Virus record (IMG/VR): IMGVR_UViG_3300048849_000035
Location: 1-43,451 of that record
DNA: 43,451 bases
Strand: one strand, 5' to 3'
Source of the DNA: a virus
Lineage: Duplodnaviria; Caudoviricetes
Numbering within the stretch: position 1 is the stretch's first letter; every line of letters starts with the position of its first letter. Below the pieces are notes generated by a model. That model did not search any database and was not told the DNA's origin. It was given only the letters and a program-made list of their open reading frames with translations. Below, in pieces: positions 10,019-43,451 of this stretch. The translations under genes and the position numbers were made by a program.

Positions 10019-10543
10019 GTGCCCCGCACGCCCACCCTGTCCTTCCTCGTCGGCTTGCCCGGCGCAGGGAAGTCCACCTTCCGCGCCAAGCTGGAGGCCG
10101 CCAACCGCAATCTGAAGGTCGTCTCCACCGACGACATGATCGAGATCTACGCGGACGCCAAGGGCCTGACCTACAGCCAGGTCTTCGCGGAAGTGGACAT
10201 GGCCTCCTTCGAGCGCCGCGCCCTGGAACTGACCGCCGACTACACCAGCCTGGGCTACGACGTGCTGATCGACCGCGTGAACCTGCGCCGCGTCAGCCGC
10301 CAACGGTTCATCACCGAGACACCTCTGGGCACCCACAAGGTCGCCTACGTCTTCCATGTGCCGCCTGACGAACACTGGCGCCGCCTCAAGGAGCGCGGCC
10401 AGCGCACCGGCAAGGTGATCCCCTGGGCCGTCGTGGAGCACATGCGCTCCGTCTACGACCCGCCCGTCCATAGCGACTTCGACGAGATCCACATCGTGGA
10501 CCACGTCACGGGCACCGCAACCCCATTCGAGAGGACTGTCTGA
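10019..10543 (+). CDS. P-loop kinase (AAA_33 / polynucleotide-kinase-like)
   Basis: LVGLPGAGKST, VSTDD, IDRVNL...R motifs. Confidence 0.85.
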   Translation: MPRTPTLSFLVGLPGAGKSTFRAKLEAANRNLKVVSTDDMIEIYADAKGLTYSQVFAEVDMASFERRALELTADYTSLGYDVLIDRVNLRRVSRQRFITETPLGTHKVAYVFHVPPDEHWRRLKERGQRTGKVIPWAVVEHMRSVYDPPVHSDFDEIHIVDHVTGTATPFERTV

Positions 10544-23876: not shown

Positions 23877-24295
23877 CCCCCGCCACGCTCGCCCACGCCT
23901 CCTGGCTGGGCCAGAACCTCCGCCCCGAGGATGCCGCCGAGTTGCGCGCCTGGGGTCGGACGGATCTCCAAGGTGTCGTCGAGGAGGGCTTCCGGCTCTC
24001 CGAGGAGGCTTTCACGGGCCACCTAGGTGACCGCGTGGTGGCCATGGCTGGCGTCGTGGCGACCCCGATGGGTGGCTGCGTCTGGCTCTTGGGAGCGCCT
24101 GGTTTGGAGCGCCTCGCGGTTCAGTTGCACAAAGAGGCGAAGGCGAAGATCGCCTCCTGGCTGCCCCGCCACGGCCGCCTCTTCAACACCTGCTGGGCAC
24201 CCAACACGGTCCATGTCCGCTGGCTGCGGCGCCTGGGCTTCACCCTTCATCCACCCCAAGGAGACTTCATTGCGTTCGAGATGACCCATGTGTGA
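23849..24295 (+). CDS. Internal virion protein A (gp13-like)
   Basis: LRPEDAAE, VWLLG, LFNT..NTVHVRWLRRLGF; synteny. Confidence 0.85.
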   Translation: MAHSRSAHLTPATLAHASWLGQNLRPEDAAELRAWGRTDLQGVVEEGFRLSEEAFTGHLGDRVVAMAGVVATPMGGCVWLLGAPGLERLAVQLHKEAKAKIASWLPRHGRLFNTCWAPNTVHVRWLRRLGFTLHPPQGDFIAFEMTHV

Positions 24296-24857
24296 CCCGA
24301 CAGGTATTTCCTACGCCACCCTGGCCATCGCCATTGCCTCCGCCGCCACTGGATATGTGGCCCAGGATCAGCAGGCCACGGCGCAGACCAACTACGCCGA
24401 GCGTGCCCGCGATGCGGCCCGCGAGAAGGCGGCCAACGACTTCGCTGCCCTCGGGCTGCGGCAGAGCCAGGAGCAGGCCGCCGCCGCCGAGAAGGACATC
24501 CAGGCGCAGCGCCAGGGTGAGGCCAATGCCGCCACCTCGCTGGTCTCCGGGCTGGAGGCTGGTGCCGCCGGTAACAGCTTCGCGGACACCGTCTCCAACA
24601 TCCTGGGGCGCGAGAACGCCGCCCGTGCGCAGGCTGCCGCCCAGAGGGACATGACCGTGTCCCAGCTGGAGGCGGAGAAGCTGGGCGTGGCGGACGGCAC
24701 CCAGGCCACCCTCAACTCCGCCCGGAACGGCACCGCCCCCTCCATGGTGGGCCTGGGGCTGGAGATCGGTGGCGCGGCGCTGAAGTCCTACGACACCTAC
24801 GACCGCTACCAGTACCGCCAGACGGCCGGAACCAAGACCCACACCCGAACCCCGTAA
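24288..24857 (+). CDS. Internal virion protein B (gp14-like)
   Basis: MCDP start, Ala/Gln-rich, GAAGNS; synteny. Confidence 0.85.
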   Translation: MCDPTGISYATLAIAIASAATGYVAQDQQATAQTNYAERARDAAREKAANDFAALGLRQSQEQAAAAEKDIQAQRQGEANAATSLVSGLEAGAAGNSFADTVSNILGRENAARAQAAAQRDMTVSQLEAEKLGVADGTQATLNSARNGTAPSMVGLGLEIGGAALKSYDTYDRYQYRQTAGTKTHTRTP

Positions 24858-24866
24858 GGAGCACCC

Positions 24867-27164: not shown

Positions 27165-27176
27165 CCCAAGGAACCC

Positions 27177-30100: not shown

Positions 30101-30491
30101 TGGCGACACCGACAAGCACCTCGACCGCATGCTGACGCCCGAGAAGATCGCCCTGGCGGGCTTCAACCGGCTTGGCGCGGCGGCCCTGGTGCCGACCATG
30201 GTGGACAGCGCCCTCCTGCCCTTCCTGGGCTTCGACGGCCTCTTCACCGACGCCCGCTCCTCTGGCCTGGGGGCGGACATCATCTCGGGCAACCCCACCG
30301 TGCGCATGTTCGCAGACGTCGGCAACGTCGTCGGCGGCGCCGTGCAGACGGTCGTGGACCCCGAATACAAGGCGTCCAAGGCGGACGTCAAAGCCACCTT
30401 CTCGGTCCTCCCTCTCGGGAACGCCATCGGCATTCGGAACATCTCGAACCTGATGGCGGCGGACCTCCCCTACAAATCCACCAACCACTAA
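27177..30491 (+). CDS. Internal virion protein D (gp16-like)
   Basis: 1104 aa before the tail fiber; GRMLGQFKTF motif in the C-terminal part. Confidence 0.8.
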   Translation: MSDPIAIPEEITPSGTPAAAAIAASPTTSLPSNLGAALPTTQAPTAGQRGDAARAASEKAPGLLEGLDLAVQDTPTATVWNGIFGARLAPDPNFKLDEPTLKTLTEGLPRETWDALGAARSLAEAQSIRGHIKETLERREKLAAMGVTGAALNLAVNIIDPTALVAGWATGGVGATANMGRAGRALVGAMAGAGVEGGLAAWTASNDATASTRDVLIAAGLGGIAGGLGGFFSRSGGAAQMDAADEAAARLSSAAVLRNLEEAGVPLSRTGQSTKAHLLATTAQLEAEGAEMFGSSTAGAAQRPGVTPLSQAADDRAYAAAERLDGATSVGGRARFDMVGQSLQSEHPLIKETAMNLGEESVGLTKGATTFSASEDANLTHRVWLRDMYAGGVSEAERAWVKQNGTGWVSKRADTERFYEEVSRAVRRPPGAYTNDPHINRAADKLRQSFAKIRDEAEAAGVRGFDQFGPNDTYLMRVWRLDRIMAARAQYGEAAINRMFANAALGGSAGNLSPQDAQRLGRAFQRALVSRSVGAEVGATIQGTSREGLEAAMRATGVTDDLIEQVLGRMDDPSSGNPSRAKHRVSFDETHVEQTFAADGVTRVDLRMEDFMENNAAALFAHYSRQVAGLSALAKKGIRSEADWQRVINDIRQTAPEYSPKLAANQADLDKAIDKLETLRKSVLGIPLSPNSRANQILRVLRDFNFVRMMGQVGFSQIAEFGAAASHVGFRNMLSYVPEAFSVIKRAKSGRLPNQFMEEIESHWALGGERYLERMAAQYDREDGFLAMGQVSKGLKHLTDIVSDVSGMAPITSFQRRLATAAAINRMTKMAQKGRWPNESQMRSLGLDEPMMRRVFAELNTNAARVNGVFGRKVTTLGFDNWTDVEAREAFTHAVYRWSRKAVQENDIGNLSQWMTTPMGRMLGQFKTFVMVAHQKQLLAGLYHMDQKVLTGWAIGMFLGSMTYIGQTNLNAFGRGDTDKHLDRMLTPEKIALAGFNRLGAAALVPTMVDSALLPFLGFDGLFTDARSSGLGADIISGNPTVRMFADVGNVVGGAVQTVVDPEYKASKADVKATFSVLPLGNAIGIRNISNLMAADLPYKSTNH

Positions 30492-30499
30492 GGAGTCCC

Positions 30500-32704
30500 T
30501 TGCTCAAGCAGACCTACACCGCGAACGGTGAGACCCGGACCTTCACGGTCCCCTTCCCGTTCATCTCGCGTGACCACATTGGGGTTACCGTCAACGAACA
30601 GCCTGCCTCCTTCACCTGGGTGAACGGCGCGACCGTCCAGCTGGCCACCACGCCAGCCGCAGGCGCTCCGGTCAGTGTCACCCGCTCCACCCCTATCGCG
30701 CCCCTGGTGGCCTTCGTGGACGACCAGCTTCAGCGCGCCTCCGACTACAACATGGCCATCCGCCAGGGCCTCTACGTGGCCGAGGAAGCCACCGCTGAGG
30801 CGCAGCGCGTGGACGTGGATGTCTCGTCGTCCCTGCGGCGCCCCGAGAACGAAACCGACGTCCCCATGCTGCTGCCTGTGGCGCCCTCCCGCGCCGGGAA
30901 GCTGCTGGGCTTCGACGGCTCTGGCGCCCCCACGGCGGTCGCGCTGGACACCACGGCTCTCCTCCAGCGCCCCGAAGGCGAGGACAGCGGCTCCATGGTG
31001 CTGCCTCCCAAGGCCTCGCGCTCCGGGAAGCTGCTGGGCTTCGACGGCTCTGGCGCCCCCACGGCGGTCATGGTGGACACCTCGGCGGCCCTGAGGCGCG
31101 CTGAAGGCGACACCGCCGTCTCCATGGTGCTGCCGCCTGCGGAGACCCGCGCCGGTAAGGTGCTGGGCTTCGACGGCTCTGGCTCCCCCACGGCGGTCAC
31201 CCTGGACGCTTCCGGCGCCCCTCTGCCGTCCCCGGACCAGATCAACGTGGTGGCGCCCTATGCCCACACGCAGCAGCGCACCCTGGCGTCCAAGCTCGCG
31301 GACAGCCTCAACGCGGCCGACTTCGGCGTCGTGGGCGACGGCACGACTGACGACACCGATGCCTTCCAGATGGCGGTGTGGACGGCGGCCCAGGTGGGCA
31401 AGGTGCTCCACGTCAACAACGGCCGGTTCCGCTTCACGCGTCCGATCACCTCCTCGCGCGGCGTCCGCATCTGGGGCCAGGGCTGCGAACCCATGGCCTC
31501 CAACCCGAACCCGGTCTCGGACATCGGCAGCGGGACGTGGTTCCACTTCGACCACGCGGGCGAGGGCTTCGTCTTCGGCCATGTGGCCTCCTTCGCCACG
31601 GGCTTCGAGTATGTCGGCATCGGCCACATCCGCAGCCAGCCGTCCCCGCACGACCCCAGCTTCGAGGCCCTCAATTACGGCTTCGACATCGTCCTCAACA
31701 ACACCGAGATCTGGATCGACCGGGTGATCTTCCTGACCTCCTCGCGCGGCATTCAGATGCCCCACGGCGCGGCGGGTCGGCTGCGCATCGGCAGCATCTC
31801 GGGGCAGCCGCTGATCTGCGGGATCGACATCGTCGAGAGCTACGACGTCACCTCGTTCAACCACATCCACTTCTGGCCGATGTGGTCCAACAACCCCATC
31901 GTGCTCTCGTGGATGGCCACCCGCTCGATTGCCATCAAGACGGGCCGCTGCGATGGCCTGGTTGGCACTAACCTCTTCGTCTTCGGCTACCACATCGGTC
32001 ACCAGATCTACGGCATCCCGGCGGGCACCACGCTCCGCGCCCAGATCGTCAACGCCTACTTCGACCTCTGCGTCGTCGGCGTGCAGGTGGCTCCGAGCGT
32101 GGGCACGGGCGGCGCAGGTTCGACCTACGGCGCCATCGTGACCTACACGAACTACGTCTCCTCTGGCCCCGAATGGCACCTTGCCGACTGCGTCGCGGTG
32201 GCGGTGTGGGGCGCTGACTGCGACCTGACCTTCACCAACTTCGAGAGCGTCTTCAGTGGCTACGGCGCCATCCGCAGCCTCGGCAACAACAACCGCATCT
32301 CCCTCACCGGGCGTGTGGCGATCCGCAACTGGGGCCGCGACCGGACGGCCAACTGGCCCGCGCTGGAGGCCTCCTCCGGTGACACCCTGATGGTCCACGG
32401 CGATCTGAGCTTCTTCCCCTCGGCCGCCACGGCGCTCTACTCCGCCTCGGGCAAGATCAGCATCCCCGGCAAGACCGCCTCGGGTGTCGTCGATGTGCCC
32501 TCCGGGCCGGGCCGCACGGTGGGCGTCCACCACGGCCTGGGGCGCGAGCCGAAGATCTCCGAGATCGTGGTGTGGCCCATCGGGCAGTCCGCAGGGTCGG
32601 CTGGCTTCCACGTCCAGAACGTGACCAGCGAGACCTTCGAGATCTACACCTTCGGCACGCTCCAGCAGGCCATGAAGTACGGGTGGAAGGTCACCCTGGC
32701 CTAA
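30500..32704 (+). CDS. Tail fiber/spike (gp17-like anchor plus beta-helix domain)
   Basis: AAGGAG SD then TTG; YTANG..FTVPFPFISRDHI..VTRSTP anchor; ADFGVVGDGTTDDTDAFQ beta-helix N-cap. Confidence 0.92.
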   Translation: MLKQTYTANGETRTFTVPFPFISRDHIGVTVNEQPASFTWVNGATVQLATTPAAGAPVSVTRSTPIAPLVAFVDDQLQRASDYNMAIRQGLYVAEEATAEAQRVDVDVSSSLRRPENETDVPMLLPVAPSRAGKLLGFDGSGAPTAVALDTTALLQRPEGEDSGSMVLPPKASRSGKLLGFDGSGAPTAVMVDTSAALRRAEGDTAVSMVLPPAETRAGKVLGFDGSGSPTAVTLDASGAPLPSPDQINVVAPYAHTQQRTLASKLADSLNAADFGVVGDGTTDDTDAFQMAVWTAAQVGKVLHVNNGRFRFTRPITSSRGVRIWGQGCEPMASNPNPVSDIGSGTWFHFDHAGEGFVFGHVASFATGFEYVGIGHIRSQPSPHDPSFEALNYGFDIVLNNTEIWIDRVIFLTSSRGIQMPHGAAGRLRIGSISGQPLICGIDIVESYDVTSFNHIHFWPMWSNNPIVLSWMATRSIAIKTGRCDGLVGTNLFVFGYHIGHQIYGIPAGTTLRAQIVNAYFDLCVVGVQVAPSVGTGGAGSTYGAIVTYTNYVSSGPEWHLADCVAVAVWGADCDLTFTNFESVFSGYGAIRSLGNNNRISLTGRVAIRNWGRDRTANWPALEASSGDTLMVHGDLSFFPSAATALYSASGKISIPGKTASGVVDVPSGPGRTVGVHHGLGREPKISEIVVWPIGQSAGSAGFHVQNVTSETFEIYTFGTLQQAMKYGWKVTLA
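30830..31215 (+). repeat. Three tandem 129-bp (43-aa) repeats in the tail fiber
   Basis: (L/V)LGFDGSG(A/S)PTAV coded at 30902, 31031, 31160. Confidence 0.9.
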
Positions 32705-32750
32705 CCTGACGCAACCTAGGGAGGCGCCTCAGCGCGTCTCCCGCCCTCCC

Positions 32751-32963
32751 ATGGAAAAGATGGACCCCTTTCAGGCTGACGTCATCGACCGCCTCGCGCG
32801 GATCGAGACGAAGCAGGACACCCTCGTGACGACGCAGCTGCTGCACTCCGCACGCATCGAAGCCCTAGAGGCGTTTCGCAACCGCATCCTTGGTGCGAGC
32901 GTCCTCGCGTCCTCCGCCGCCTCCGCCCTCGTTTCACTTCTGATCGCCCACTTCACCAAGTAA
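32751..32963 (+). CDS. Small coiled-coil plus transmembrane protein (holin/XhlA-like)
   Basis: DRLARIETKQD..RIEALE then a hydrophobic C-terminus; start may be 32760. Confidence 0.65.
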   Translation: MEKMDPFQADVIDRLARIETKQDTLVTTQLLHSARIEALEAFRNRILGASVLASSAASALVSLLIAHFTK

Positions 32964-32975
32964 AGGAGCATCCCG

Positions 32976-33389
32976 ATACTTTCCGCTATTCTTGGCGGGG
33001 TCGTTTCCCTCGTCACCGGCTCCGTTGAGCGGTGGCAGGAGGGGCGAGCCGCCGCCGCCGAGCGTGATGGGAGGATCGCTGAGGCGACCACCCAGGCGCA
33101 GATCGAGGCCCTGAAGAAGGCCCAGGACAGCGAGATCGCCTGGGACCAGCTGGTCGCCGGGCAGATGTCCACCTCCTACAAGGACGAGATCCTCACCTAC
33201 ACCTTCCTGCTGGTCTTCGTGGCGGGCTTCTTCCCGCAGACCCAGGACTACATCGCCCGTGGCTTCGAGGTCATGACGAACGCCCCGGTGTGGTTCCAGA
33301 CCTTCTTCGCGGTCGCTGTGGCCGCCGCCTTCGGCTTCCGCAAGGTCGTCGAGATCATCGTGTCCCGCATCCCCGGCGCCCGCCGGTAA
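32976..33389 (+). CDS. Putative 3TM-type holin; proposed ATA start
   Basis: Open frame LSAILGGVVSLV...EIAWD...SYKDE...PVWFQ...AAFGFR extends upstream of ORF-track start 33165; AAGGAG 32963-32968 then ATA 32976. Confidence 0.7.
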   Translation: MLSAILGGVVSLVTGSVERWQEGRAAAAERDGRIAEATTQAQIEALKKAQDSEIAWDQLVAGQMSTSYKDEILTYTFLLVFVAGFFPQTQDYIARGFEVMTNAPVWFQTFFAVAVAAAFGFRKVVEIIVSRIPGARR

Positions 33390-33403
33390 CCCCCAGGAGA
33401 ACC

Positions 33404-33565
33404 ATGAAGACCCTTCGACGCTACGCCGCCCGCGCCACCCTGGTGGTGCTGTTGCCCCTCGCCTTCGTCGCTGACAGCGCCACCAAGTGCGCCAGGGTGA
33501 TCCTTGAGACCTATCGGGAGGCCGCCGAAACCTTCCGCGACTGCTGGGAGGTGACCGCCCGGTGA
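33404..33565 (+). CDS. Hypothetical protein, 53 aa
   Basis: AGGAGA SD; GTGA overlap with the next gene. Confidence 0.65.
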   Translation: MKTLRRYAARATLVVLLPLAFVADSATKCARVILETYREAAETFRDCWEVTAR

Positions 33566-33837
33566 GCCGCGCCAAGGACGAGATCCTCGGCAAGATCCAC
33601 CAGCTGCTGGCCGACGAACTGACCAAGCGGCTGCTGGAGGGTGAGGCCACCGGCAAGACGAACGAGAGCGGGGAGCCGGTGATCATCCCGGCCTCCGCCG
33701 CCACCCTGAACACCATCCGCCAGTTCCTCAAGGACAACGGCATCACCGCCACGCCGATGCCCGGCTCGCCCCTGGAGCACCTCTCCAAGCTGGCGAACTG
33801 GGGCCACGACGACGACAACCGCTTCGCCCTGACCTAA
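33562..33837 (+). CDS. Terminase small subunit (gp18-like)
   Basis: ASAATLNTIRQFLKDNGI motif; synteny. Confidence 0.9.
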   Translation: MSRAKDEILGKIHQLLADELTKRLLEGEATGKTNESGEPVIIPASAATLNTIRQFLKDNGITATPMPGSPLEHLSKLANWGHDDDNRFALT

Positions 33838-33987
33838 GGGCCGCACAGGAGCGCCTAGGAAGCCCGCCAGGGCCTCCTGGGGCTTCTCCGCTACCTACGT
33901 ACCCGCATCCCTCTGGAAGACCGCTGGCACCCCGCTGGCGGCCTCCCTGAGGCATGTCCTCACCCCACCACCCCTAGCAAGGAGACG

Positions 33988-35697
33988 ATGACCAAGAGCA
34001 CCGACGAGGTGGACCTCGGTCCCCTCAACGACTTCCGGGTTCTGCTAGACCTCATCTGGCAGCACCTGAACCTACGGGGCGGGCCTACCCCCGTCCAGTA
34101 CGACATCGCCCACTACCTCCAGCACGGCCCCAGGCGTGCGGTGATCGAAGCCTTCCGTGGCGTCGGCAAGTCCTGGGTGACCTCGGCCTTCGTCATCTGG
34201 TCGCTCCTGAAGAACCCCCAGCTGAACATCCTGGTGGTCTCGGCGTCCAAAATCCGAGCCGACGACTTCACCACCTTCACCATGCGCCTGATCAACGAGA
34301 TCGACATCCTGGCGCACCTGCGGCCCAACGCCGACCAGCGCAACTCGAAGGTGTCCTTCGACGTCGGCCCGGCCCGCGCCTCGCACGCCCCTTCGGTGAA
34401 GTCGGTGGGCATCACCGGCCAGCTGGCGGGTTCGCGCGCGGACCTCCTGATCGCGGACGATATCGAGGTGCCCAACAACGCCGCCACCCAGGCGATGCGT
34501 GACAAGCTCTCGGAGGCCGTGAAGGAGTTCGACGCGGTCCTGAAACCAGGCGGTCGCATCATCTATCTGGGCACGCCGCAGACCGAGCAGTCGCTCTACA
34601 ACAAGCTCCCTGAGCGCGGTTACCAGATCCGCGTCTGGCCCGCCCTCTATCCCACCCCGGAGCAGCTTCCGAACTACGGCGAGAACCTCGCGCCGCTGAT
34701 CGCGGACACCCTGGAGCGCCAGCCGGACCTCGCGGGCCGTGCGGTGGACCGGAAGCGGTTCTCGGATGTGGACCTGATGGAGCGTATGGCGTCCTACGGG
34801 CGCTCAGGCTTCGCCCTCCAGTTCATGCTGGACACCCGGCTCTCGGACGCCGACCGCTACCCGCTGCGGCTCTCCGATCTGCTGGTGATGAACCTGAACC
34901 CCGACCGGGCGCCGAGCCATGTGGTCTGGGCCACCTCGCCCGAGCTTGCGATCAATGACCTGCCCTGCGTGGGCATCGCCTCGGATCGCTACTACCGCCC
35001 CATGTCCCTGGCCGACGAGTGGCTGCCCTACCAAGGCACCGTCATGGCCATCGACCCCTCCGGTAAGGGCAAGGACGAGACCGGCTACGCCATCGTCTCC
35101 ATGCTCCACGGGGTGCAGTACCTGCGCGCCTCAGGGGGCTTCAGGGACGGCTACGGGGACGCCACCATGGAGGCCCTGGCGAAGCTCGCCAAGGAGTTCG
35201 GGGTGCGCCACATCCGCATCGAGCAGAACTTCGGTGGCGGCATGTTCGCGGCCCTCTTCAAGCCGTGGCTCCAGAAGGTCGGCTATCCCTGCGTGGTCGA
35301 GGAGGAAACCTCGTCGTCCCAGAAGGAGAAGCGGATCATCGACGTGCTGGAGCCGGTCCTGAACCAGCACCGCCTCGTGGTGGACCACAGGGTCATCCTG
35401 AGGGACTTCAAGAGCACCGAGGATCTCCCGGCCGAGGACGCCAACCGCTACCGCCTGTTCTACCAGCTGACCCGCATCACCAAGGACAAGGGCGCCCTGG
35501 CCCGTGACGACCGCCTGGATGCCCTGGCGATGGCCGTGGCCTACTGGGTGGAGCAGATGTCCAAGGCCACCATGGAGGCCCATGAGGAGGCCATGGAGCG
35601 GCTGAAGAAGCAGCAGGTGGAGGACTTCATCCGGTCGGCCATGGGCGGACGGGGTGACGAGGCATGGGGCTACGCCACCATGCTAGACCTCCCCTGA
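33988..35697 (+). CDS. Terminase large subunit (gp19-like)
   Basis: AFRGVGKS, ADDIE, LGTPQ, IDPSGKGKDE, DDRLDALA. Confidence 0.97.
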   Translation: MTKSTDEVDLGPLNDFRVLLDLIWQHLNLRGGPTPVQYDIAHYLQHGPRRAVIEAFRGVGKSWVTSAFVIWSLLKNPQLNILVVSASKIRADDFTTFTMRLINEIDILAHLRPNADQRNSKVSFDVGPARASHAPSVKSVGITGQLAGSRADLLIADDIEVPNNAATQAMRDKLSEAVKEFDAVLKPGGRIIYLGTPQTEQSLYNKLPERGYQIRVWPALYPTPEQLPNYGENLAPLIADTLERQPDLAGRAVDRKRFSDVDLMERMASYGRSGFALQFMLDTRLSDADRYPLRLSDLLVMNLNPDRAPSHVVWATSPELAINDLPCVGIASDRYYRPMSLADEWLPYQGTVMAIDPSGKGKDETGYAIVSMLHGVQYLRASGGFRDGYGDATMEALAKLAKEFGVRHIRIEQNFGGGMFAALFKPWLQKVGYPCVVEEETSSSQKEKRIIDVLEPVLNQHRLVVDHRVILRDFKSTEDLPAEDANRYRLFYQLTRITKDKGALARDDRLDALAMAVAYWVEQMSKATMEAHEEAMERLKKQQVEDFIRSAMGGRGDEAWGYATMLDLP

Positions 35698-35718
35698 GGT
35701 TAGGTTGCACGAAGAGGG
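35696..35718 (+). promoter_or_regulatory. Phage RNAP promoter (phiOR-like)
   Basis: GAGGTTAGGTTGCACGAAGAGGG after the terminase gene, followed by an AT-richer tract. Confidence 0.8.
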
Positions 35719-35829
35719 GGAAGGATAACCTAAGATATCTATAAAGAGAGCTTTGTAGGTTATCGGTGTAGGTGTCGTTGTAGGAGGTTCATCTAAGCCA
35801 GTATCTTAGGTGTACCTCCTAGCTCACCT

Positions 35830-36670
35830 AACCAGTGTCTGAGGTGAGCCTATAGGTGACCCCGCCCCGTACACCTCCCCCAGACCACCTCCCTTCATAG
35901 ACCTCCCCGCTTCGGACTGGGCAGAGAGGTCTCCCGGCCAGTGTCCGGTGTCCAGGCTGTTGACCAGTGTCCGACGTGACCTCCAGCCAGTGTCCGATCT
36001 CCCCAAGAACTCCCAAGTACCGCTCAAGTAATCCGAAAGGTTTTACTACAAAAATCTGAGCGACCCTCGAATATCTGATGAACGCGCGCACCCCCCGTGG
36101 CCCCGCCCGCGATCCATGCAGACGCCCGCGCGCCACACGCCCGAGCCACTACCGCGCACGCGCAGCGCCCGCCCGAGCAGCATCCCGCGCGCACGCATGG
36201 GTGCTCTAGCGGTGCCCCTGTCACAGCTTGTGGCGCAACCGAGGCTCCGCCCTAGGCTAACCCGTTGTAATCGCTCACCACGCAGCGGATATGGAATCTC
36301 CCATGCACAGCCCAGGCGCCGCCCATGCGCACTCACGCGCACCCAAGGCGCACCCAAGCGCCCGCTCACGCGCTCGCGAGGCAGCTAGTCAGCGGTGTTA
36401 TGTTATAACATCACATCTCCACTTCTCATCGCCTGCTGTTTTGCCCGGATGATATCCGCCTCGCACGCTGGCCCGCACACGCGCCTACACGCACCCACGG
36501 CGCACCCACGCCCACCTAGGCGCCCGCCCATACGCGCACCCGACGCACCCACGCGCTCCGCACGCGCACCCAAGGCGCCCATACGCGCACCCGACGCGCC
36601 CACCCGCTCGCTCCGCCCTGGTGGCTCCCGAAACGCCGCCCTGGTGCCGCCCTGGTGCCGCCCTGGTGGC
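35830..36670. repeat. Non-coding genome-end (terminal repeat) region with short repeats
   Basis: CCAGTGTC at 35832, 35938, 35964, 35987; 22-bp repeat at 36525 and 36576; GCCGCCCTGGT x3 at 36635-36667; lies between terminase and early genes. Confidence 0.75.
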
Positions 36671-36785
36671 CTAAATCCGCTTCACAATCGCCTAAAGCGC
36701 CTGGTCAGCGGCTCTCTAAGCCCTTGATATTCCATCGCTTTTCAAAAAAGTCGCCGCGGATCGCATTTTTCCTGTTCAGGAGGGG

Positions 36786-36814
36786 TTGTCTCAACCTCGG
36801 CCAGCGGATAGAAA
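36786..36814 (+). promoter_or_regulatory. Candidate sigma70 early promoter
   Basis: TTGTCT-N17-TAGAAA upstream of boxA and the first early ORF. Confidence 0.5.
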
Positions 36815-36869
36815 CCATTTCACCGGCAGCGAGGCACCCCACCGAAGGGGACGCCAAGCCAGCCGGGAC

Positions 36870-36882
36870 CGCTCTTTGACAA
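36870..36882 (+). promoter_or_regulatory. boxA antitermination element
   Basis: CGCTCTTTGACAA resembles rrn/lambda boxA (GCTCTTTAACA) and lies in the early leader, as in T7/T3. Confidence 0.7.
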
Positions 36883-37080
36883 CCGCATCTGTCGCAAGAC
36901 CCGGCGAGGTAACCGTGCCGGTCAAACTTGAAGCCGCCTGCGATAACCGGGCCGCTCCTGAACGGAACCACACACGAGAGCATGAACGGGCCGCCTAGCG
37001 TGGCCCTGGATTGCTCCGCCCGATCCTCTCCCTTGGCGGAGTGGCTCCGGTGGTGCAACCTCTCCTCGTGAGACGCTCAC

Positions 37081-37278
37081 ATGACCTACAGCAACCGCAA
37101 GGTTGGCGGCATCCGCTTCGTGAAGCTGGGCCGCCTGCAACTCTCCTTCTGCGTGACCAAGGCCGCTCCGAAGCAGGCCGACCGGGCCGCCAAGCGCCCC
37201 CTGGATCACGCTGGGCTGGCCCTGGACGGGCTGGTTCTCGCCTCCTGGGTGGCCGTGGCCGCCGTCTTCTTCTCCTGA
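37081..37278 (+). CDS. Early hypothetical protein, 65 aa
   Basis: MTYSNRKVGGIRFVKLGRLQLSFCV; hydrophobic C-terminus. Confidence 0.7.
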   Translation: MTYSNRKVGGIRFVKLGRLQLSFCVTKAAPKQADRAAKRPLDHAGLALDGLVLASWVAVAAVFFS

Positions 37279-37298
37279 AACCGAACGAGAACGACGCC

Positions 37299-37544
37299 AT
37301 GACCCCCGAGCAAGCCGCCCGCGTGGACACGCACAACGGCACCCTGACCTCCCTGGATGGCCAGACCTTCCGCTACGTCCTCGAGACCCGGCGGCGCTGG
37401 AACATCGGCCTCCGTAAGCACGTCAACGAGTTGACCGGACGCCTTCACGTCACGTCCCCGGACGGAACGGGCCGCACGTTCAGCGGGTGGGCGGACGTCT
37501 TCCCCTGGGTCGAGAAGGCGGCCCGCTGGGCGCTCCAATCCTGA
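37299..37544 (+). CDS. Early hypothetical protein, 81 aa
   Basis: MTPEQAARVDTHNG...WALQS; ATG 37299. Confidence 0.7.
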   Translation: MTPEQAARVDTHNGTLTSLDGQTFRYVLETRRRWNIGLRKHVNELTGRLHVTSPDGTGRTFSGWADVFPWVEKAARWALQS

Positions 37545-37546
37545 CA

Positions 37547-37610
37547 ACCGCCTGACGAGACCCTGAAGGGTCGAAACCTAGGGTGCCCTCGGGCGCCCGA
37601 TGGTCGCGGT
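37547..37610 (+). ncRNA. Type I hammerhead ribozyme
   Basis: Stem I ACCGC/GCGGT; CUGACGA 37552-37558; stem II GACCC-TGAA-GGGTC; GAAA 37573-37576; stem III with GGGTGCC/GGCGCCC; GUC triplet 37603-37605. Confidence 0.88.
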
Positions 37611-37660
37611 GCTGCCTGCATGGTGCGGGCGGAACGACACCGCATCTGAGGAACCGAACC

Positions 37661-37741
37661 ATGAAGCTGGTCTTCGTGAAGGTTCTTCAGGTGCTGGGGT
37701 GGGAAGTGAGAGTGGAAGTCTCACTGTCCCGTAAGCCCTAG
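37661..37741 (+). CDS. Putative 26-aa micropeptide
   Basis: GAGGA SD; MKLVFVKVLQVLGWEVRVEVSLSRKP; followed by a long GC hairpin. Confidence 0.5.
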   Translation: MKLVFVKVLQVLGWEVRVEVSLSRKP

Positions 37742-37822
37742 CGTCCTGAAGGGGCCAGGGGTGGCCTAAACGCTGCCCCTGGTTCCCGGAAGGATGCCCC
37801 TCCTCTCCCTGGATTTCAAGCC

Positions 37823-38173
37823 ATGTCCTCCATCTACGAGCAGCACACCGCCGCCTTCGCCCAGGTCTCCGGTTTCGTCGTCATGGACGGCGCCGAGCGG
37901 GTCGCCACGGTGGGCCTCAAGTTCCCCAAGGACGGCGCCGGGCGCCTCTGGGCCTACGTCCACTGGGTCGGAACGCCGATGGTCCGGGGCAGCGCCGGGG
38001 GCTACGGCTACGACAAGCGGAGCGCGGCGGTGGCTGCGGCGGCGGGCAAGCTGTCCGATGCGGACGCCACGGGGCGCTTCCACGACTTCAAGGCCGCCGC
38101 GATGAAAGACGGCGGGTGGGGCTGGACGCGGAACCTTGAGAAGGCGGGCTTCACGGTCCTCCAGGCGGTCTAG
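37823..38173 (+). CDS. Early hypothetical protein, 116 aa
   Basis: Strong codon bias; GSAGGYGYDKRSAA motif. Confidence 0.8.
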   Translation: MSSIYEQHTAAFAQVSGFVVMDGAERVATVGLKFPKDGAGRLWAYVHWVGTPMVRGSAGGYGYDKRSAAVAAAAGKLSDADATGRFHDFKAAAMKDGGWGWTRNLEKAGFTVLQAV

Positions 38174-38314
38174 CTGCGCCCTGATCCCTCCTGAACCGGC
38201 GAGGCTCCCTCTGCGGAGCCTCCTGGCGACCCTCCTGGCAGCCATCGGGGCGCGTCTCCGGTGGCTCCTAGGTGAGCCGCTCCTGGCCACTCGAACGCAC
38301 CCGAACGGTGACCC

Positions 38315-38767
38315 ATGCAAGTCCGCATCTACCGCAACCTCACCCGCTCCTGCCTGAGCATCCAGGCGAAGACCGCCAAGGGCTGGCGGGTGATCGCCCA
38401 CGCCTCCGCCGCCGAGCTTGAGGGCGTCTCCTTCGAGGTCAACGAACGGGTGCGCCAGCGCGTGCTGGCCACCGGGCACAAGGAAGTCCACGCCTACGCG
38501 GTCGGCACCCTGGTCGGCTGGACCGGCTCCCTGGTGGTCTCCCATGAGGCGCCTGAGGCGGCAATCCTGGCCATCCGGGCGGCTCCTCCGGTGCCTGAGT
38601 GGGCCTTCCCCGTCTCCTACAACCCGCGCCGCCAAGGCGCCTTCCACCGGGTGACCGGGCGCCCCTATGGCGACCCCTCCCTGCGCGGCTGCGCTTGGCT
38701 CTGCATGTCGCCCGTGAAGATGGGCGCGGTGGGCCTCCGCTACGTCGATCCGGCGGGCAACGGCTGA
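38315..38767 (+). CDS. Early phage hypothetical protein, 150 aa
   Basis: VRIYRNL..SI..VIAH..F.V..RQRV..KEVHA..SYNP pattern recalled from phage hypothetical proteins. Confidence 0.8.
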   Translation: MQVRIYRNLTRSCLSIQAKTAKGWRVIAHASAAELEGVSFEVNERVRQRVLATGHKEVHAYAVGTLVGWTGSLVVSHEAPEAAILAIRAAPPVPEWAFPVSYNPRRQGAFHRVTGRPYGDPSLRGCAWLCMSPVKMGAVGLRYVDPAGNG

Positions 38768-38768
38768 G

Positions 38769-38855
38769 ATGGCCCGCGCCCTCCTCTGGCTCTCCGCTTG
38801 GCTGCTGGCCTGGGGCGCGATGCTCCACCAGATCGGCCTCCTGAACCTCCGCTAA
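38769..38855 (+). CDS. Putative 28-aa membrane micropeptide
   Basis: MARALLWLSAWLLAWGAMLHQIGLLNLR, starts 1 nt after the upstream stop. Confidence 0.55.
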   Translation: MARALLWLSAWLLAWGAMLHQIGLLNLR

Positions 38856-38883
38856 CCCTCCCTCGCACGAACGAGACCGACCC

Positions 38884-39063
38884 ATGACCATCGCCAAGGC
38901 CCAGGCCGCCGCGCGCCATTACGGCTGCTCCATTCGCTCCTCCAACGGAGAGTTCCGCGTGAACCTCTCGGGCGGCAAGGAAGCCACCGCCTACTACACC
39001 AACTGCCTGGACGACGCGGTTGCCACCGCCCGCGCCATGGCCCTCGAAGCGAAGGGGGCCTGA
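38884..39063 (+). CDS. Early hypothetical protein, 59 aa
   Basis: MTIAKAQ...GEFRVNL...ATAYYTNCLDDAVATARAM. Confidence 0.7.
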   Translation: MTIAKAQAAARHYGCSIRSSNGEFRVNLSGGKEATAYYTNCLDDAVATARAMALEAKGA

Positions 39064-39066
39064 GCC

Positions 39067-39312
39067 ATGAGCTTCCGTGACCTGCTCCCGCAGCTGCTGC
39101 CCATGATGACCCTGCAACACGCCCGCGACATCGCGGACATGAGCATCGTGGCGGGCCACCGCTGCGCCTCCCGAGACCGCGCCTTGCGCGCCATTGAGGT
39201 GCTGGAGGAGCACCAGAAGAACGTCGAGGACATCCGCCGGGCGGGCCAGCTTCGCGCCCTGCTGGACGTCACCCTGGCGCCCACCGCGTGGCCGAACCAA
39301 TGGCCGACCTGA
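39067..39312 (+). CDS. Early hypothetical protein, 81 aa
   Basis: AAGGGGG SD; tight packing. Confidence 0.65.
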   Translation: MSFRDLLPQLLPMMTLQHARDIADMSIVAGHRCASRDRALRAIEVLEEHQKNVEDIRRAGQLRALLDVTLAPTAWPNQWPT

Positions 39313-39386
39313 TCGTGTGGCTGCTGGCCTGGGGCACCTTCCTGGCCGCCTTCTTCTGCTTCACCGCCTGGATGTACGGCTGGTGA
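39300..39386 (+). CDS. Putative 28-aa membrane micropeptide
   Basis: MADLIVWLLAWGTFLAAFFCFTAWMYGW; TGATG coupling to the next ORF. Confidence 0.55.
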   Translation: MADLIVWLLAWGTFLAAFFCFTAWMYGW

Positions 39387-39538
39387 TGGCCCCCGAGCAA
39401 CTCGCCGCCGAGATCGAGCGCGCCAGGGCGGAGGTCTTCCGCCTGGAATGCGCGGACGACCGGGCCGCCCTCAACGGCTCCCTCGGGGCCGCCTACGAGC
39501 GCCTAGCGCGCCTCCAGGCCCTCCTCGCCTCCTCCTGA
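39386..39538 (+). CDS. Early hypothetical protein, 50 aa
   Basis: MAPEQLAAEIERARAEV...LLASS. Confidence 0.6.
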   Translation: MAPEQLAAEIERARAEVFRLECADDRAALNGSLGAAYERLARLQALLASS

Positions 39539-39648
39539 CCCTCACACCCGCGCGCTGGGCCGCTCCTGGCGCGCGTAGTGAAGGCCCGGCCTTCCATCCC
39601 TCGGCGCCCGAAGTGCGCCCGGATGCCTCCCCTACCGGAACAACTCCG

Positions 39649-40593
39649 ATGCCCAACCTGAACGACCGCCACCTCCCGCGCCACATGCTGGAGGCTCTCC
39701 GCGACCCCGCGCAGATGCACCAGCCGCGCGCCATCCGCCCTCGCAACGAGATGCGCATGGAGATGCCGCCGCTGCGCCTCGCGGGCTTCCTGCGGTCCCG
39801 CATGGACCACGCCGTGGCTCACGAGATCAAGGTCAAGCGCGTTCGCCTGGGCGGCGCGGCGATGCCTGAGGCGGACCACTTCGACCCTCTCGGGCGTCCC
39901 CTGGGCGGCGGCCTGCCGCTCTCGCCGGTCTCCTACGGCGGCCTGACGCGGTCCTCCAGGCGGAGCGCCCTGCGCCGGTCTGAGCGCCCCGTGTCGAAGG
40001 ACTTCGGCGGCGAGTGGGCGGTAGGCGAGCGCGTCCACCGGGTGGCCTCCTTGGCGGAGCTTCAGAACCGCCTGAGGGCGCGAGGCTGGGAGCAGGTCGG
40101 CGCGGGCTACTACGGCACCGCCCACGCGAAGGGGGGCCTGGTTTGGAAGATCAGCAGCCGCCACGATGACGGATACAAGGTCTGGGCGTGGATGGTCCTC
40201 ACCGGCAAGCTGGCCCACCGCTGCGCCAACCTGCCGCGCATCAAGCTGATGCTGGTGGATGATACGGGCGCCTGCGCGGTGCTGATGGAGCGCCTGGACT
40301 GCACCCTGGGCGAGGCGATCTTCGGCCAGAAGCCTGCGCATACGCGCCACCACCGCGCCGCCATGGCCTTCGAGGCGGACCACGACAGGTTCCACTACAA
40401 CGGAAAGCTGACCGGGTTCGACCCGAAGCACGCCGAGATCTTCCACATCCTGCGGCTGCTGCGCCTGGGGATGCAGGGCAGCGAGCAGTTCGAGGGCGCC
40501 GAACGCCTCACGCGCCACTCCGAGGACTTCCACAGGGGCAACTTCATGCTCCGCAAGGACGGCACCGTGGTCATCACCGACCCGATCTGCTGA
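39649..40593 (+). CDS. Ser/Thr protein kinase (T7 gp0.7-like)
   Basis: VGAGYYG glycine loop, VWK lysine, NLPRI, DFHRGNFM catalytic loop, VITDP; early-region position. Confidence 0.85.
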   Translation: MPNLNDRHLPRHMLEALRDPAQMHQPRAIRPRNEMRMEMPPLRLAGFLRSRMDHAVAHEIKVKRVRLGGAAMPEADHFDPLGRPLGGGLPLSPVSYGGLTRSSRRSALRRSERPVSKDFGGEWAVGERVHRVASLAELQNRLRARGWEQVGAGYYGTAHAKGGLVWKISSRHDDGYKVWAWMVLTGKLAHRCANLPRIKLMLVDDTGACAVLMERLDCTLGEAIFGQKPAHTRHHRAAMAFEADHDRFHYNGKLTGFDPKHAEIFHILRLLRLGMQGSEQFEGAERLTRHSEDFHRGNFMLRKDGTVVITDPIC

Positions 40594-40638
40594 CCGCCTG
40601 AGCTTTCCCTGAACCCCTCCTGAGATCGAGACGATATC

Positions 40639-40797
40639 ATGCCGGAATATTACAAAGTCCTGATTTTCGCGAACCACCGTTCGCTCAAGCCCATGCACGA
40701 GACGCTGATCGCGGCGCGGACGCGCTCCGAGGCGAACCGCATGGCACGGGACGCAGCCCAGGCGGTCGGCGGCTCCTACTTCCGGGTTGAGGCGTGA
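40639..40797 (+). CDS. Hypothetical protein, 52 aa
   Basis: MPEYYKVLIFANH...SYFRVEA. Confidence 0.6.
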   Translation: MPEYYKVLIFANHRSLKPMHETLIAARTRSEANRMARDAAQAVGGSYFRVEA

Positions 40798-41257
40798 TCT
40801 CTTGCGCCTCCCTCCGCCGCCCAAAACGGGCAATGCGGTCCTGTCAACCCTGGGACGCATCTATAGCAACCTCCCGCCAGACGCTGTGGAATGCAGGCGT
40901 CTAGTGATGGGGGAGATCATCCGGGCGGAGGCAACTCCACCGGGTGGTTTGGTGCCGGTTTACGTCGTCGGAAAGACGCGCATTCCGGTTGAAATTGCGC
41001 TAAACCCAACGCGCTACCACGAGTCGAGACACCCTAAGTGCCACAGGCACGCACCCATTCGAGAAACCCTGGCGGTCGTTTTCAGACCACACCTCCAGAG
41101 GCTCTCGGATGGGATAAAATCCCTCCTCTTCAGCAAAGGCTCTGCCTCGGGGAAAGTTCACATTTCGTTGACTTCCCCTTATTCGCATGCCAAAAACCTC
41201 CCACCGGACGTGGAGACACCGTCTCCCCTTTCGGAGCGTCTTTCCGAAAATTTATGA
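40787..41257 (+). CDS. Doubtful ORF in a lower-GC segment
   Basis: ORF track only; atypical codon usage. Confidence 0.25.
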   Translation: MRRDLLRLPPPPKTGNAVLSTLGRIYSNLPPDAVECRRLVMGEIIRAEATPPGGLVPVYVVGKTRIPVEIALNPTRYHESRHPKCHRHAPIRETLAVVFRPHLQRLSDGIKSLLFSKGSASGKVHISLTSPYSHAKNLPPDVETPSPLSERLSENL

Positions 41258-41283
41258 CCTTGGGACGGCACGGCCGGGACAAA

Positions 41284-41553
41284 ATGCGCTCCATCTTCTT
41301 CCGCATTGCGAATGTTGAGTTTTTTGCTGAGTGGGACGGCATCCATGCCTCGGAGCCGTCTGGAATGCGTGTTTTGCATGACGGGGCACTGTTGAAGCTT
41401 GGCCGTTTTGCCGTAGTGGTGAGCCGGACACCCCCTAAAGGACGTGCAGAGACATGCCCAACACCCCTAAGCCTCGCGCTGTCGGGAAGCTGGTCGCCTT
41501 GTTTGACCTGCTTCGCGATCTCAACCCCGAGATGCCCGCTCAGTCTGCTCTGA
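41284..41553 (+). CDS. Possible small protein upstream of the repressor
   Basis: MRSIFFRIANVEFFAEWD...LLKLGRFAVVVSR looks protein-like; 3' end overlaps the next gene by 100 nt. Confidence 0.4.
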   Translation: MRSIFFRIANVEFFAEWDGIHASEPSGMRVLHDGALLKLGRFAVVVSRTPPKGRAETCPTPLSLALSGSWSPCLTCFAISTPRCPLSLL

Positions 41554-41795
41554 CGCTGCTCTTGGTTGCGCAGTCGCCAGGGATTGCGATTGGCGAGCTT
41601 CAGCAAAGGCTCAACGTCGCATCTTCAACGATGTCGAGAAACATCTCGATAATGTCGGAGCATCGCGGCAAAGGCGAGGCCGGTTTGGGCCTAATCGAGA
41701 CCCGAGAAGATGTAATGGATCGCCGTATAAAGCGCGTCTGGCTGACCGCTCGCGGCGAGAATGTCCTCAACCGCATATCGACATTATTTGAATGA
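41454..41795 (+). CDS. MarR-like winged-helix regulator (putative prophage repressor)
   Basis: PGIAIGELQQRLNVASSTMSRNI HTH; GLI..REDVMDRRIKRVWLTARG wing; adjacent to integrase. Confidence 0.9.
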   Translation: MPNTPKPRAVGKLVALFDLLRDLNPEMPAQSALTLLLVAQSPGIAIGELQQRLNVASSTMSRNISIMSEHRGKGEAGLGLIETREDVMDRRIKRVWLTARGENVLNRISTLFE

Positions 41796-41805
41796 GAGGT
41801 ATTGC

Positions 41806-42822
41806 ATGGGCATCCGCGCGCGCGGCGCCGTATTCACCGCCGACATTGCAGTAAAGGGCAAGCGTTGGCGACGAGACTTTCAGACTAGGTCCGAGGCCGA
41901 GCAATGGTTCTTAGAAAACCTCGCTCGCGCCAAACGGGGGGAAACACCAGACCTCGGAGAGGCTCCTACTGAGCGCAGCGCAGCTGCCGTAGGAACCCTC
42001 GCGATGGCCCGAGACGCCGCCGACGCCCGTTGGTGGCACGACAAGCGCAGCGTGGTCCAGATCAGGCGCCACGCTGCCGAGGCGGTCGAGCACTTCGGTG
42101 CGGACACGCCCTGCTCCGAGATCACGACCACCAAAATCGACGCCTGGGCGGACCAGCTGCGCGCCAAAGGCCTCGCAGGGAGCAGCATCAACCACCGCAT
42201 GGCGGTGATCTCCAAGATGCTCCGCGCCGCCGCCCTCAAGGGCTGGATCACCGCCAAGCCGGTCATCGAACGCGCCACCCCGGCGCCCGGTCGGCTGCGA
42301 TGGCTGTCCGAGGAAGAGGAGGAGCGGCTGCTGGCCGTCATGCTCCGCCACGGGTGGCTCACCGAGGCTCGCCTGACCCGCTTCCTGATCGAGCAAGGCG
42401 CCCGCGTGAGCGAGGCTCTGGCACTCGTCGAGAAGGACTTCGAGGGGCAGCGCCGGGTCACCTTCTGGAAGACCAAGAACGGCAAGCCGCGCACCGTACC
42501 GCTCACCAAGCGCGCGCTGGAGTACCTCCCGGCGTTCACCGGGCGTCCGACCGAGAGCGTCTTCAAGCTCTCCTACGGCGGCTACTACCACCGCTTCCTC
42601 AAGGCGGTCGCGGAGGCGGGTATGGGGGACGACGTGGTGATCCACACGCTCCGCCACACCAGCTGCTCCCGCAAGGCGCGCGACGGGATGCTGATCCTGG
42701 CCATCAAGGAATGGCACGGCCACTCGTCCCTGGCGGTCACCGAACGCTACGCCCACCTCGCTCCGAGGATGCTTGAGGGCGAGCTTGAGCGGCTCGAAGC
42801 TGCTCTCATCCGGGCCGCGTAA
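41806..42822 (+). CDS. int: Tyrosine integrase
   Basis: GARVSE (R), KTKNG (K), HTLRH (HxxR), GHSS (H), ERYAH (Y); GAGAGG SD before ATG 41806. Confidence 0.96.
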   Translation: MGIRARGAVFTADIAVKGKRWRRDFQTRSEAEQWFLENLARAKRGETPDLGEAPTERSAAAVGTLAMARDAADARWWHDKRSVVQIRRHAAEAVEHFGADTPCSEITTTKIDAWADQLRAKGLAGSSINHRMAVISKMLRAAALKGWITAKPVIERATPAPGRLRWLSEEEEERLLAVMLRHGWLTEARLTRFLIEQGARVSEALALVEKDFEGQRRVTFWKTKNGKPRTVPLTKRALEYLPAFTGRPTESVFKLSYGGYYHRFLKAVAEAGMGDDVVIHTLRHTSCSRKARDGMLILAIKEWHGHSSLAVTERYAHLAPRMLEGELERLEAALIRAA

Positions 42823-42884
42823 ATCCGTTTCAGACGGTAGACTTCCGACCTCTCCACCTGTAAATCCGCTCCATGTCGCAGGCG

Positions 42885-42928
42885 TGTCTCGCTGTCTCAA
42901 CTTGAGACAAACCTGTGCCATGGAGACA
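42885..42928. repeat. TGTCTC/GAGACA motif cluster, candidate arm-type sites
   Basis: TGTCTC 42885, palindrome TGTCTCAA-C-TTGAGACA 42893-42909, GGAGACA 42922. Confidence 0.55.
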
Positions 42929-42938
42929 CCTCCACTCT

Positions 42939-43023
42939 GCCCGAGTGGCGAAACGGTAAACGCAGCGCACTCAAAATGCGCCGTCTTTTCATAGACTTGT
43001 CGGTTCAACTCCGACCTCGGGCA
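42939..43023 (+). tRNA. Phage-encoded complete tRNA-Leu(CAA), CCA not encoded
   Basis: Acceptor GCCCGAG/CTCGGGC-A; D arm GCGAAACGGTAAACGC; anticodon arm GCGCA-CTCAAAA-TGCGC; variable arm GTCT/AGAC; T arm GTCGG-TTCAACT-CCGAC. Confidence 0.93.
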
Positions 43024-43044
43024 TTCCCATTTTTCAACTCAGGT

Positions 43045-43103
43045 CGGACTCAAAATCCGCTTCTGGTGACAGAGTGTCGGTTCGAGTCCGACCACCCGCA
43101 CCA
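43045..43103 (+). tRNA. attR core plus 3' half of host tRNA-Leu(CAA)
   Basis: CGGACTCAAAA-TCCGC, variable arm, GTCGG-TTCGAGT-CCGAC, CACCCGC-A-CCA; complements 435-472. Confidence 0.95.
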
Positions 43104-43126
43104 AATCTTCCCGGAAAAGGTGCCTT

Positions 43127-43451
43127 TTGCTGCGGACCTACCTGCCGCTGCTGGCGGCAATCGTGCTGGAGGTCATCGCCACCTCCGCGCTCCAGGCCTC
43201 TCAGCAATTCACCCGGCCATGGCCGACGCTGCTGATGGCGCTGGGCTATCTGGGCGCATTCTTCTTCTTGTCCCTGGCGCTGCGCGGCATTCCCGTCGGC
43301 ATCGCCTATGCGATCTGGAGCGGGCTCGGCATCGTGCTGATCTCGGCCGTGGGCTGGATCGGCTTCGGGCAGAAGCTGGACCTGCCGGCCATGATCGGCC
43401 TCGGCCTGATCCTGGCCGGGGTGCTGGTGGTGAACCTCTTCTCCGGCAGCG
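43127..43451 (+). CDS. Host SMR-family (EmrE/QacE-like) transporter, truncated by the window edge
   Basis: MLRTYLPLLAAIVLEVIATSAL...IPVGIAYAIWSGLG...GLGLILAGVLVVNLFS with the conserved TM1 Glu. Confidence 0.92.
   Translation, partial: MLRTYLPLLAAIVLEVIATSALQASQQFTRPWPTLLMALGYLGAFFFLSLALRGIPVGIAYAIWSGLGIVLISAVGWIGFGQKLDLPAMIGLGLILAGVLVVNLFSGS

Follow-up and report, generated by a model that had tools for sequence, protein, structure and literature searches.

The window analyzed here, a soil phage record of 43,451 bases, has the appearance of a complete virus genome, with a G+C content of ~67% and all of its long open frames on the + strand. It encodes a T7-type RNA polymerase (676-3414, +; PHROG 414, E 1e-225) and a T7-type large terminase (33988-35697, +) with ~60% identity to the terminases of Roseobacter, Ralstonia, and Rhizobium podophages, and it carries a MarR-like regulator and a tyrosine integrase (41454-42822, +), as well as a tRNA-Leu(CAA) (42939-43023) found by Rfam at gathering thresholds. 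Because the T7-type polymerase and terminase occur together with the MarR-like regulator, the integrase, and the tRNA-Leu(CAA), the genome is, by its gene content, that of a temperate T7-like phage. The regulator, the integrase, and the complete tRNA gene follow one another within 41454-43074, and the contig of the likely source assembly ends near 43074, just beyond the tRNA-Leu(CAA), a position compatible with an attachment site there. Between the terminase and a block of small genes is an ORF-poor stretch of 1.6 kb, in which degenerate C-rich direct repeats with a period of ~21 nt (CGCGCACCCA.GGCGC type, 6-8 copies) occupy 36300-36665 with a strongly negative GC skew; this repeat region may represent the genome ends or the concatemer junction of a T7-like phage. 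The element described below lies within the small-gene block, 1.85 kb past the terminase gene and 6.5 kb ahead of the polymerase gene. From gene order only, and by analogy to T7, this block would correspond to the early region. A sigma-70 scan of 35600-38200 detected no promoter-like site on the + strand, although host promoters may differ from the pattern scanned.

The small gene upstream of the element (37296-37544, +; 82 amino acids) has no PHROG or Pfam match and ends with the stop codon TGA at 37542-37544, leaving a gap of 2 nt to A37547, at which a sequence arranged as a type I hammerhead ribozyme begins on the + strand. The 5' strand of stem I, ACCGC (37547-37551, positions 2.5-2.1), pairs with the 3' strand GCGGU (37606-37610, positions 1.1-1.5), and between the two strands are placed the catalytic core CUGACGA (37552-37558; C3 U4 G5 A6 C7 G8 A9), the stem II hairpin GACCC-UGAA-GGGUC (37559-37572) with its closing pair G10.1-C11.1, the core GAA (37573-37575; G12 A13 A14), and stem III (37576-37604), composed of A15.1-U16.1 and two further pairs, an internal loop UA/GAU, seven pairs, and a CUCG loop. 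C17 is C37605, and the hammerhead consensus predicts cleavage between C37605 and G37606. The consensus core CUGANGA...GAA...UH is present in full, with H17 (C37605) not being G, and all three core-adjacent positions hold standard pairs, namely G37559-C37572 (10.1-11.1), G37606-C37551 (1.1-2.1), and A37576-U37604 (15.1-16.1). Three helices surround the core, with loops capping stems II and III and stem I left open, which is the type I topology. The same pairs 10.1-11.1, 1.1-2.1, and A15.1-U16.1, together with the core, constitute the acceptance rules of Perreault et al. 2011 (PMC3088659). The initial annotation had recorded the core nucleotides and three stems 2 nt past a stop codon, with a predicted cut after C37605, and every coordinate proved correct.

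The minimum-energy fold of 37545-37614 (70 nt) coincides exactly with this three-way junction (-33.6 kcal/mol, z -3.1), and none of 200 shuffled sequences folds as well. A strict descriptor finds this single site across both strands of the window; with loose thresholds, a match of any kind appears in 10 of 300 dinucleotide shuffles of the window and an equally good one in 1 of 300. Such shuffle odds alone are insufficient for a scan of many windows; it is the comparative evidence that lifts the motif above chance.

Rfam at gathering thresholds reported, over the whole window, a tRNA only and no hammerhead, and the whole-window E-value search returned nothing hammerhead-like; the best Rfam match, obtained in E-value mode with 301 bases, was to RF02275 (Hammerhead_HH9) with 16.5 bits against a gathering score of 52. 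The check by Infernal with the Rfam hammerhead models, suggested in the initial annotation, thus ended below the cut-off, and the control loci were missed in the same way: in 20 loci whose hammerheads were defined by our own descriptor and covariance model, not one of the phage hammerheads, which are of types I and III and number more than 30, was found by Rfam at gathering thresholds, the only reports of Rfam 15 being a twister-P5 ribozyme in one locus (L040) and a tRNA. Because these controls were equally missed, the negative Rfam result on the window carries little weight. The Rfam hammerheads (clan CL00010, RF02275) and the window sequence align in the core and in the stem II/III register, whereas the model does not cover the 21 nt inserted in stem III of the window sequence or its open stem I. 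For annotation, this means that the Rfam cut-offs overlook a whole group of such phage hammerheads.

Viral contigs were scanned with a pattern taken from the 5' half of the window motif (CCGC, the core, a gap, and CGAAAC), yielding 127 loci and an estimated 510 stretches across the whole collection. The strict type I descriptor was passed by 77 of 131 distinct matches, the remaining 54 including many near-misses or type III hammerheads, and several family records contain three to six hammerheads between small genes. Eighty-five distinct phage type I hammerheads, with the copies of the window and of L097 (a metagenome locus described below) excluded, served to build a covariance model, R1; stem I of this family has the form (N)CCGC/GCGG(N). 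With filters off, R1 matched the window at 37546-37611 over its full length (model positions 1-61) with 49.3 bits, family members scoring 33-68 bits and the runner-up in the 43,451 bases of both strands 17.2 bits. Since the pattern had been taken from the 5' half of the window motif, ~18 positions match by construction and the R1 E-value overstates the independence of the match; the independent part of the fit consists of the 3' half with its strand, the GUC, and all pairings. Among 107 distinct aligned sequences, in an alignment itself fitted to the model, standard pairs occupy 93.2% of the pair cells as against 27-46% when the partners are slid, and both sides are changed in 429 pair cells, a number reached by 0 of 500 shuffles. 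The unusual stem III form of the window, ACCUA-helix-GA(U/C)GGU, also occurs in six other phage copies (L149, L156, L171, L212, L218, and L266). Two further candidates in the window were rejected: the R1 match at 10359-10400 (17.2 bits), situated in a coding frame, consists of no more than CUGACGA and the stem I strands, GAAA being absent, and on the minus strand a match to a loose 'type II' descriptor shows stems of just 3-4 bp and is unsupported by R1. The hammerhead identity proposed earlier is therefore supported by all sequence criteria tried as well as by the fit to a covarying phage family, and we consider that 37547-37610 (+) is probably a type I hammerhead motif with a complete core, a full-length member of this family, predicted to cut between C37605 and G37606. 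Judged from its sequence, the RNA of this region is likely to undergo self-cleavage.

Downstream of the motif, GAGGA (37648-37652) is followed by ATG 37661, 55 nt past the predicted cut, which opens a 26-codon frame (37648-37741 with the ribosome site, +) representing a putative gene only. The stretch 37661-37822 holds this frame and two hairpins, AGUGAGA/UCUCACU (~37703-37728) and CCAGGGG/CCCCUGG (~37755-37782); L097 is without this 160-nt stretch, and one RNA-library contig end (37773) falls inside it. The next gene (37823-38173, +; 116 amino acids) has no family match. The ribosome-site context GAGGAACCGA is found before several small genes, at 37647-37658 of the window, 990-1003 and 1333-1343 of L097, and 1973-1985 of L052.

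Relatives of the 116-residue protein were collected from 50 viral loci, the best 80 of 115 metagenome loci, and 7 genome loci. Neither blastn nor nhmmer searches with 37290-37830 against all collected loci revealed conserved DNA, and the upstream DNA of the relatives is unalignable with that of the window. Among the 87 metagenome (best 80 of 115) and genome loci, R1 matched in L097 only, where a type I hammerhead at 1255-1315 (57.1 bits) lies 29 nt ahead of, and directly adjoins, the homologue of the downstream gene. L097 was reached through protein similarity alone, not through the RNA motif; its homologue shows 68% identity over residues 1-65 and is the second of the five relatives highest in best-segment percent identity. 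The sequences of its stems II and III are unlike those of the window with pairing kept, its stem I is UCCGC/GCGGA, and a competing hairpin, GCGGA-UUGG-UCCGC, occupies the slot matching that of the window hairpin described below, with GGAGGAACCG-ATG next to it. The ribozymes of the window and of L097 follow unrelated genes. The other four of the five top-identity relatives (L094, L103, L104, and L107) have no hammerhead in that slot, so the element comes and goes among relatives, and none was found in the matching slot of the 50 viral loci. Minimal type I hammerheads of L040, L041, and L043 were considered as syntenic copies and rejected, being ~1.7-2 kb further on. In L040, the twister-P5 ribozyme (1664-1718; Rfam, 48.4 bits) and the minimal type I hammerhead (2737-2785) lie on the same strand ~1 kb apart, and L041 and L043 contain the same minimal hammerhead as L040. 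A search with the upstream 82-residue protein gave one weak partial match (L052), with no hammerhead there, and no confirmed relative emerged from viral contigs when the RNA polymerase was the single query.

The 3' strand of stem I is also part of a second structure. As the initial annotation had proposed, GCGGUG (37606-37611) can alternatively pair with CACCGC (37638-37643) ahead of GAGGA, and folding in silico confirmed this hairpin (37606-37643, +), in which the two strands close CUGCCUGCA-UGG-UGCGGGCGG to give 15 pairs with a 5-nt bulge in 38 nt and a predicted energy of -24.4 kcal/mol. The hairpin begins at nucleotide 1 of the predicted 3' product, CACCGC being at +32 to +37. In the fold of a 121-nt RNA, this pairing is formed and stem I is lost, the hammerhead conformer having -49.8 kcal/mol versus -54.1 for the alternative, and the equilibrium probability of each stem I pair is ~0.004. 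For a growing transcript, the hammerhead is predicted to be the best fold with ends at 37610-37630 and to be lost from 37635 on. Since the downstream hairpin out-competes stem I, cutting would need a short kinetic window or a minor conformer. In these folding models, the hairpin and the hammerhead are mutually exclusive through their common nucleotides 37606-37610.

The same arrangement is seen throughout the family. In 50 of 84 copies (65 loci), the stretch from +7 to +45 contains the exact complement of the four bases with which the 3' product begins. The controls gave 49 of 300 for letter permutations (16%), 27 of 84 copies when the 43 nt on the upstream side were searched, and 19 of 84 for +60 to +102; the complement's occurrences peak at +4 to +19, and all three copies whose 3' strand starts with GUGG have CCAC downstream. 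The mean pairing probability of these first 4 nt is 0.84 versus 0.64 with the remainder shuffled (Wilcoxon p 6e-10), exceeding 0.8 in 60 of 87 copies. The competing hairpin is thus a family trait, far above controls. Many copies also have a loop II/tail pseudoknot of the kind described by Perreault et al.; it overlaps the hairpin partner in 23 copies, 18 copies have a loop II/tail pairing of at least 4 bp apart from the hairpin partner, and 11 have none, these classes being rough as short pairings are common by chance and the loci are partly non-independent lineages. The window has no loop II/3' tail pairing of at least 4 bp (the best is 3 bp), because its loop II is only UGAA. By this search for loop II/tail pairing, no tertiary contact between stems I and II was found in the window. 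Hammerheads without such a contact are slow at cellular magnesium. Loops II of tetraloop size without a pseudoknot are likewise present in L170, L187, L165, and L040, all of which except L040 keep the product hairpin.

Family copies also share their placement at gene borders. An upstream frame of at least 60 open codons precedes 79 of 88 copies, and for 69 of these 79 the end of the stop codon falls between -10 and +9 nt relative to stem I; the TGA contained in every core inflates the -10 bin. No more than 80 nt from the cut, 52 of 84 copies have a ribosome site and a start codon (30 open codons being required), at a median distance of 39.5 nt, versus 10 of 84 on the reverse complement. The window conforms to this layout with its 2-nt gap to the stop and its downstream GAGGA and ATG, though the frame has just 26 codons. 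Among 47 other hammerhead-bearing viral records searched, a T7-type polymerase occurs in one (G033), whose hammerhead (50.4 bits with R1) lies between the terminase and RNA polymerase genes, the gene behind it being unrelated to that of the window; a second R1 match in this record (21.6 bits) has an 80-nt insert holding start codons. As a separate observation, one 57-kb viral contig (L054, 1479-1934, and L055, 102-2186) contains at least four type III hammerheads within ~2.5 kb, with a GGAG-type ribosome site directly behind all three whose flanks were examined; this group is a cluster of the kind described in prophages.

From these features a sequence of events can be proposed. The hammerhead would be the best fold only while the transcript end lies between ~37610 and 37630. 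After cutting, the upstream message would retain nearly the whole ribozyme at its 3' end, which would bear a 2',3'-cyclic phosphate, and the downstream message would start at the 5'-OH of G37606, buried at the base of the 38-nt hairpin and 10 nt ahead of the ribosome-binding site. The terminal hairpin would probably prevent re-ligation and protect the new terminus against RNases that depend on a 5' end, and the module would thereby be likely to give the flanking genes separate RNA ends and stabilities. In the folding models, the product hairpin is real and recurrent, and we infer for it a role as a lock and an end shield. Tentatively, we extend this to the family and suggest that phage type I hammerheads may be modules that make RNA ends at gene borders: the folded ribozyme with its cyclic phosphate would cap the 3' end of the upstream message, the leftover bases would snap into a hairpin flush with the downstream 5'-OH end, and each gene of a long phage transcript would gain its own protected ends, the amount of cutting being set by the contest between stem I and the hairpin and by ribosomes stopping on the 5' strand of the ribozyme.

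RNA data bearing on the site come from one soil metatranscriptome (X2) in the form of assembled contigs, for which 23452-43451 (20 kb) was examined. Four contigs match over their whole length with 100% identity (37379-37608, 37580-37773, 41219-41433, and 41638-41840), and a fifth matches over 32 nt only (43072-43103); the ribozyme region and the regulator region are thus both in this RNA library. Such contigs reveal neither RNA ends nor amounts or cut fraction, and uncovered stretches are not evidence of silence. Both of the two contigs that touch the cut site (37379-37608 and 37580-37773) span C37605/G37606, and therefore uncut molecules or contaminating DNA must be present, and cutting, if any, was incomplete in that sample. 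This would also be expected if the window copy were a descendant of the hammerhead family that is now inactive or nearly so, out-competed by the hairpin, the RNA staying uncut and the region serving as a structured spacer. The absence of a pseudoknot of at least 4 bp, the equilibrium probability of ~0.004 for the stem I pairs, and the single copy in this genome, against several in many family records, all fit such a reading. We nevertheless regard it as unlikely: the core and the three closing pairs are intact, where loss is expected in a decaying copy; four other copies with a tetraloop-size loop II likewise have no pseudoknot, three of them (not L040) keeping the product hairpin; the hammerhead is predicted to be the best fold at transcript ends 37610-37630; and the contigs, by their nature, cannot gauge the cut fraction.

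The initial annotation had further interpreted the site as processing the early RNA by self-cleavage to leave a hairpin-protected message with a 5'-OH, the alternative fold perhaps acting as a switch. Of this, the hammerhead identity and the competing hairpin stood, the latter in silico and with its recurrence in the family added, whereas a regulated switch between the two folds is possible but unsupported. In a true regulatory switch, a signal such as terminating ribosomes, transcription speed, or a hairpin-binding factor would set both the cutting and the downstream expression. Compatible with it are the mutual exclusion of the folds through 37606-37610 and the position of the upstream stop, which, being 2 nt before stem I, would let a terminating ribosome cover the 5' strand of stem I. 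The upstream gene of L097 terminates at the very UGA inside the CUGA core (1262-1264), so that a terminating ribosome would sit on the ribozyme; of the 79 family copies with an upstream frame, 69 have a stop that adjoins or overlaps the ribozyme, a count inflated by the TGA that every core contributes to the -10 bin. On the other hand, no ligand-like conserved pocket or factor site was seen, and a product lock explains the hairpin equally well; we judge a genuine switch quite improbable. It is very improbable, finally, that the motif is a chance look-alike in a GC-rich structured spacer that is in fact cut by RNase III or another nuclease of the host, as happens at the intergenic hairpins of T7 early RNA, for, despite the loose matches in 10 of 300 shuffles and an Rfam score below threshold, an equally good match arose in just 1 of 300, R1 separates the site (49.3 bits) from the runner-up (17.2 bits), L097 has a syntenic hammerhead with compensatory stems, the unusual stem III form recurs in six other phage copies, and the hairpin, with 15 pairs and a 5-nt bulge, is shorter than RNase III substrates of about two helical turns.

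The proposal of an end-making module at gene borders is worth comparing with known systems. Hammerheads between phage or prophage genes, often near integrases and clustered, were described in 2011, along with bacterial ones that flank single genes, and cutting long phage messages into gene-length RNAs was proposed as their role in the same report (PMC3088659). The element of the window resembles them in its core, its three helices, and its intergenic site in an integrase-carrying phage; it differs in being a single copy rather than a cluster, and no pseudoknot between loop II and stem I was found in it. For natural phage hammerheads, the literature searched describes no product hairpin that draws on the 3' strand of stem I. 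By its sequence, the window hammerhead is a known kind of element, and its product-hairpin design is a recurrent one. The T7-like podophage host sets it apart from most hammerhead-bearing records, a T7-like polymerase being present in 1 of 47 others.

An engineered counterpart is RiboJ, a synthetic insulator in which a hammerhead and then a hairpin are placed ahead of the ribosome site; its ribozyme, which has another topology, derives by engineering from that of a plant satellite RNA, and its hairpin is a separate add-on. The likeness on paper is that self-cleavage removes the upstream RNA and leaves a 5' hairpin before the ribosome-binding site, and the end-making module would in this sense be a natural counterpart of RiboJ. 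The hairpin of the window, unlike the add-on of RiboJ, re-uses the 3' strand of stem I and so competes with the active fold. In T7, early mRNA is cut by host RNase III at intergenic hairpins, the sites being imperfect duplexes of about two helical turns. Those sites and the window element share an intergenic position in the early region (presumed for the window) and an outcome of separate messages with structured ends; the window differs in that protein-free chemistry is predicted, with 5'-OH and cyclic phosphate ends, and in that there is no long duplex. Stem-loops at the 5' terminus, such as that of the ompA leader, stabilize bacterial mRNAs. As in leaders of the ompA type, the hairpin of the window would sit at the very 5' terminus of the predicted 3' product; in contrast to them, this end would be made by predicted self-cleavage and carry a 5'-OH, and the stabilization is putative.

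In a 2019 review, bacterial and phage hammerheads are still without a defined purpose, for which "additional work" is said to be needed (PMC6765202). The window copy and its family make this question concrete and testable, since they present a layout in which the ribozyme begins at the upstream stop, the cut would fall ~40-55 nt before the next start, and the leftover bases are able to form a terminal hairpin. Should the hairpin govern how much of the RNA is cut or how long the downstream message lasts, this would explain the preference for the type I topology at gene borders and would also provide natural compact insulator parts.
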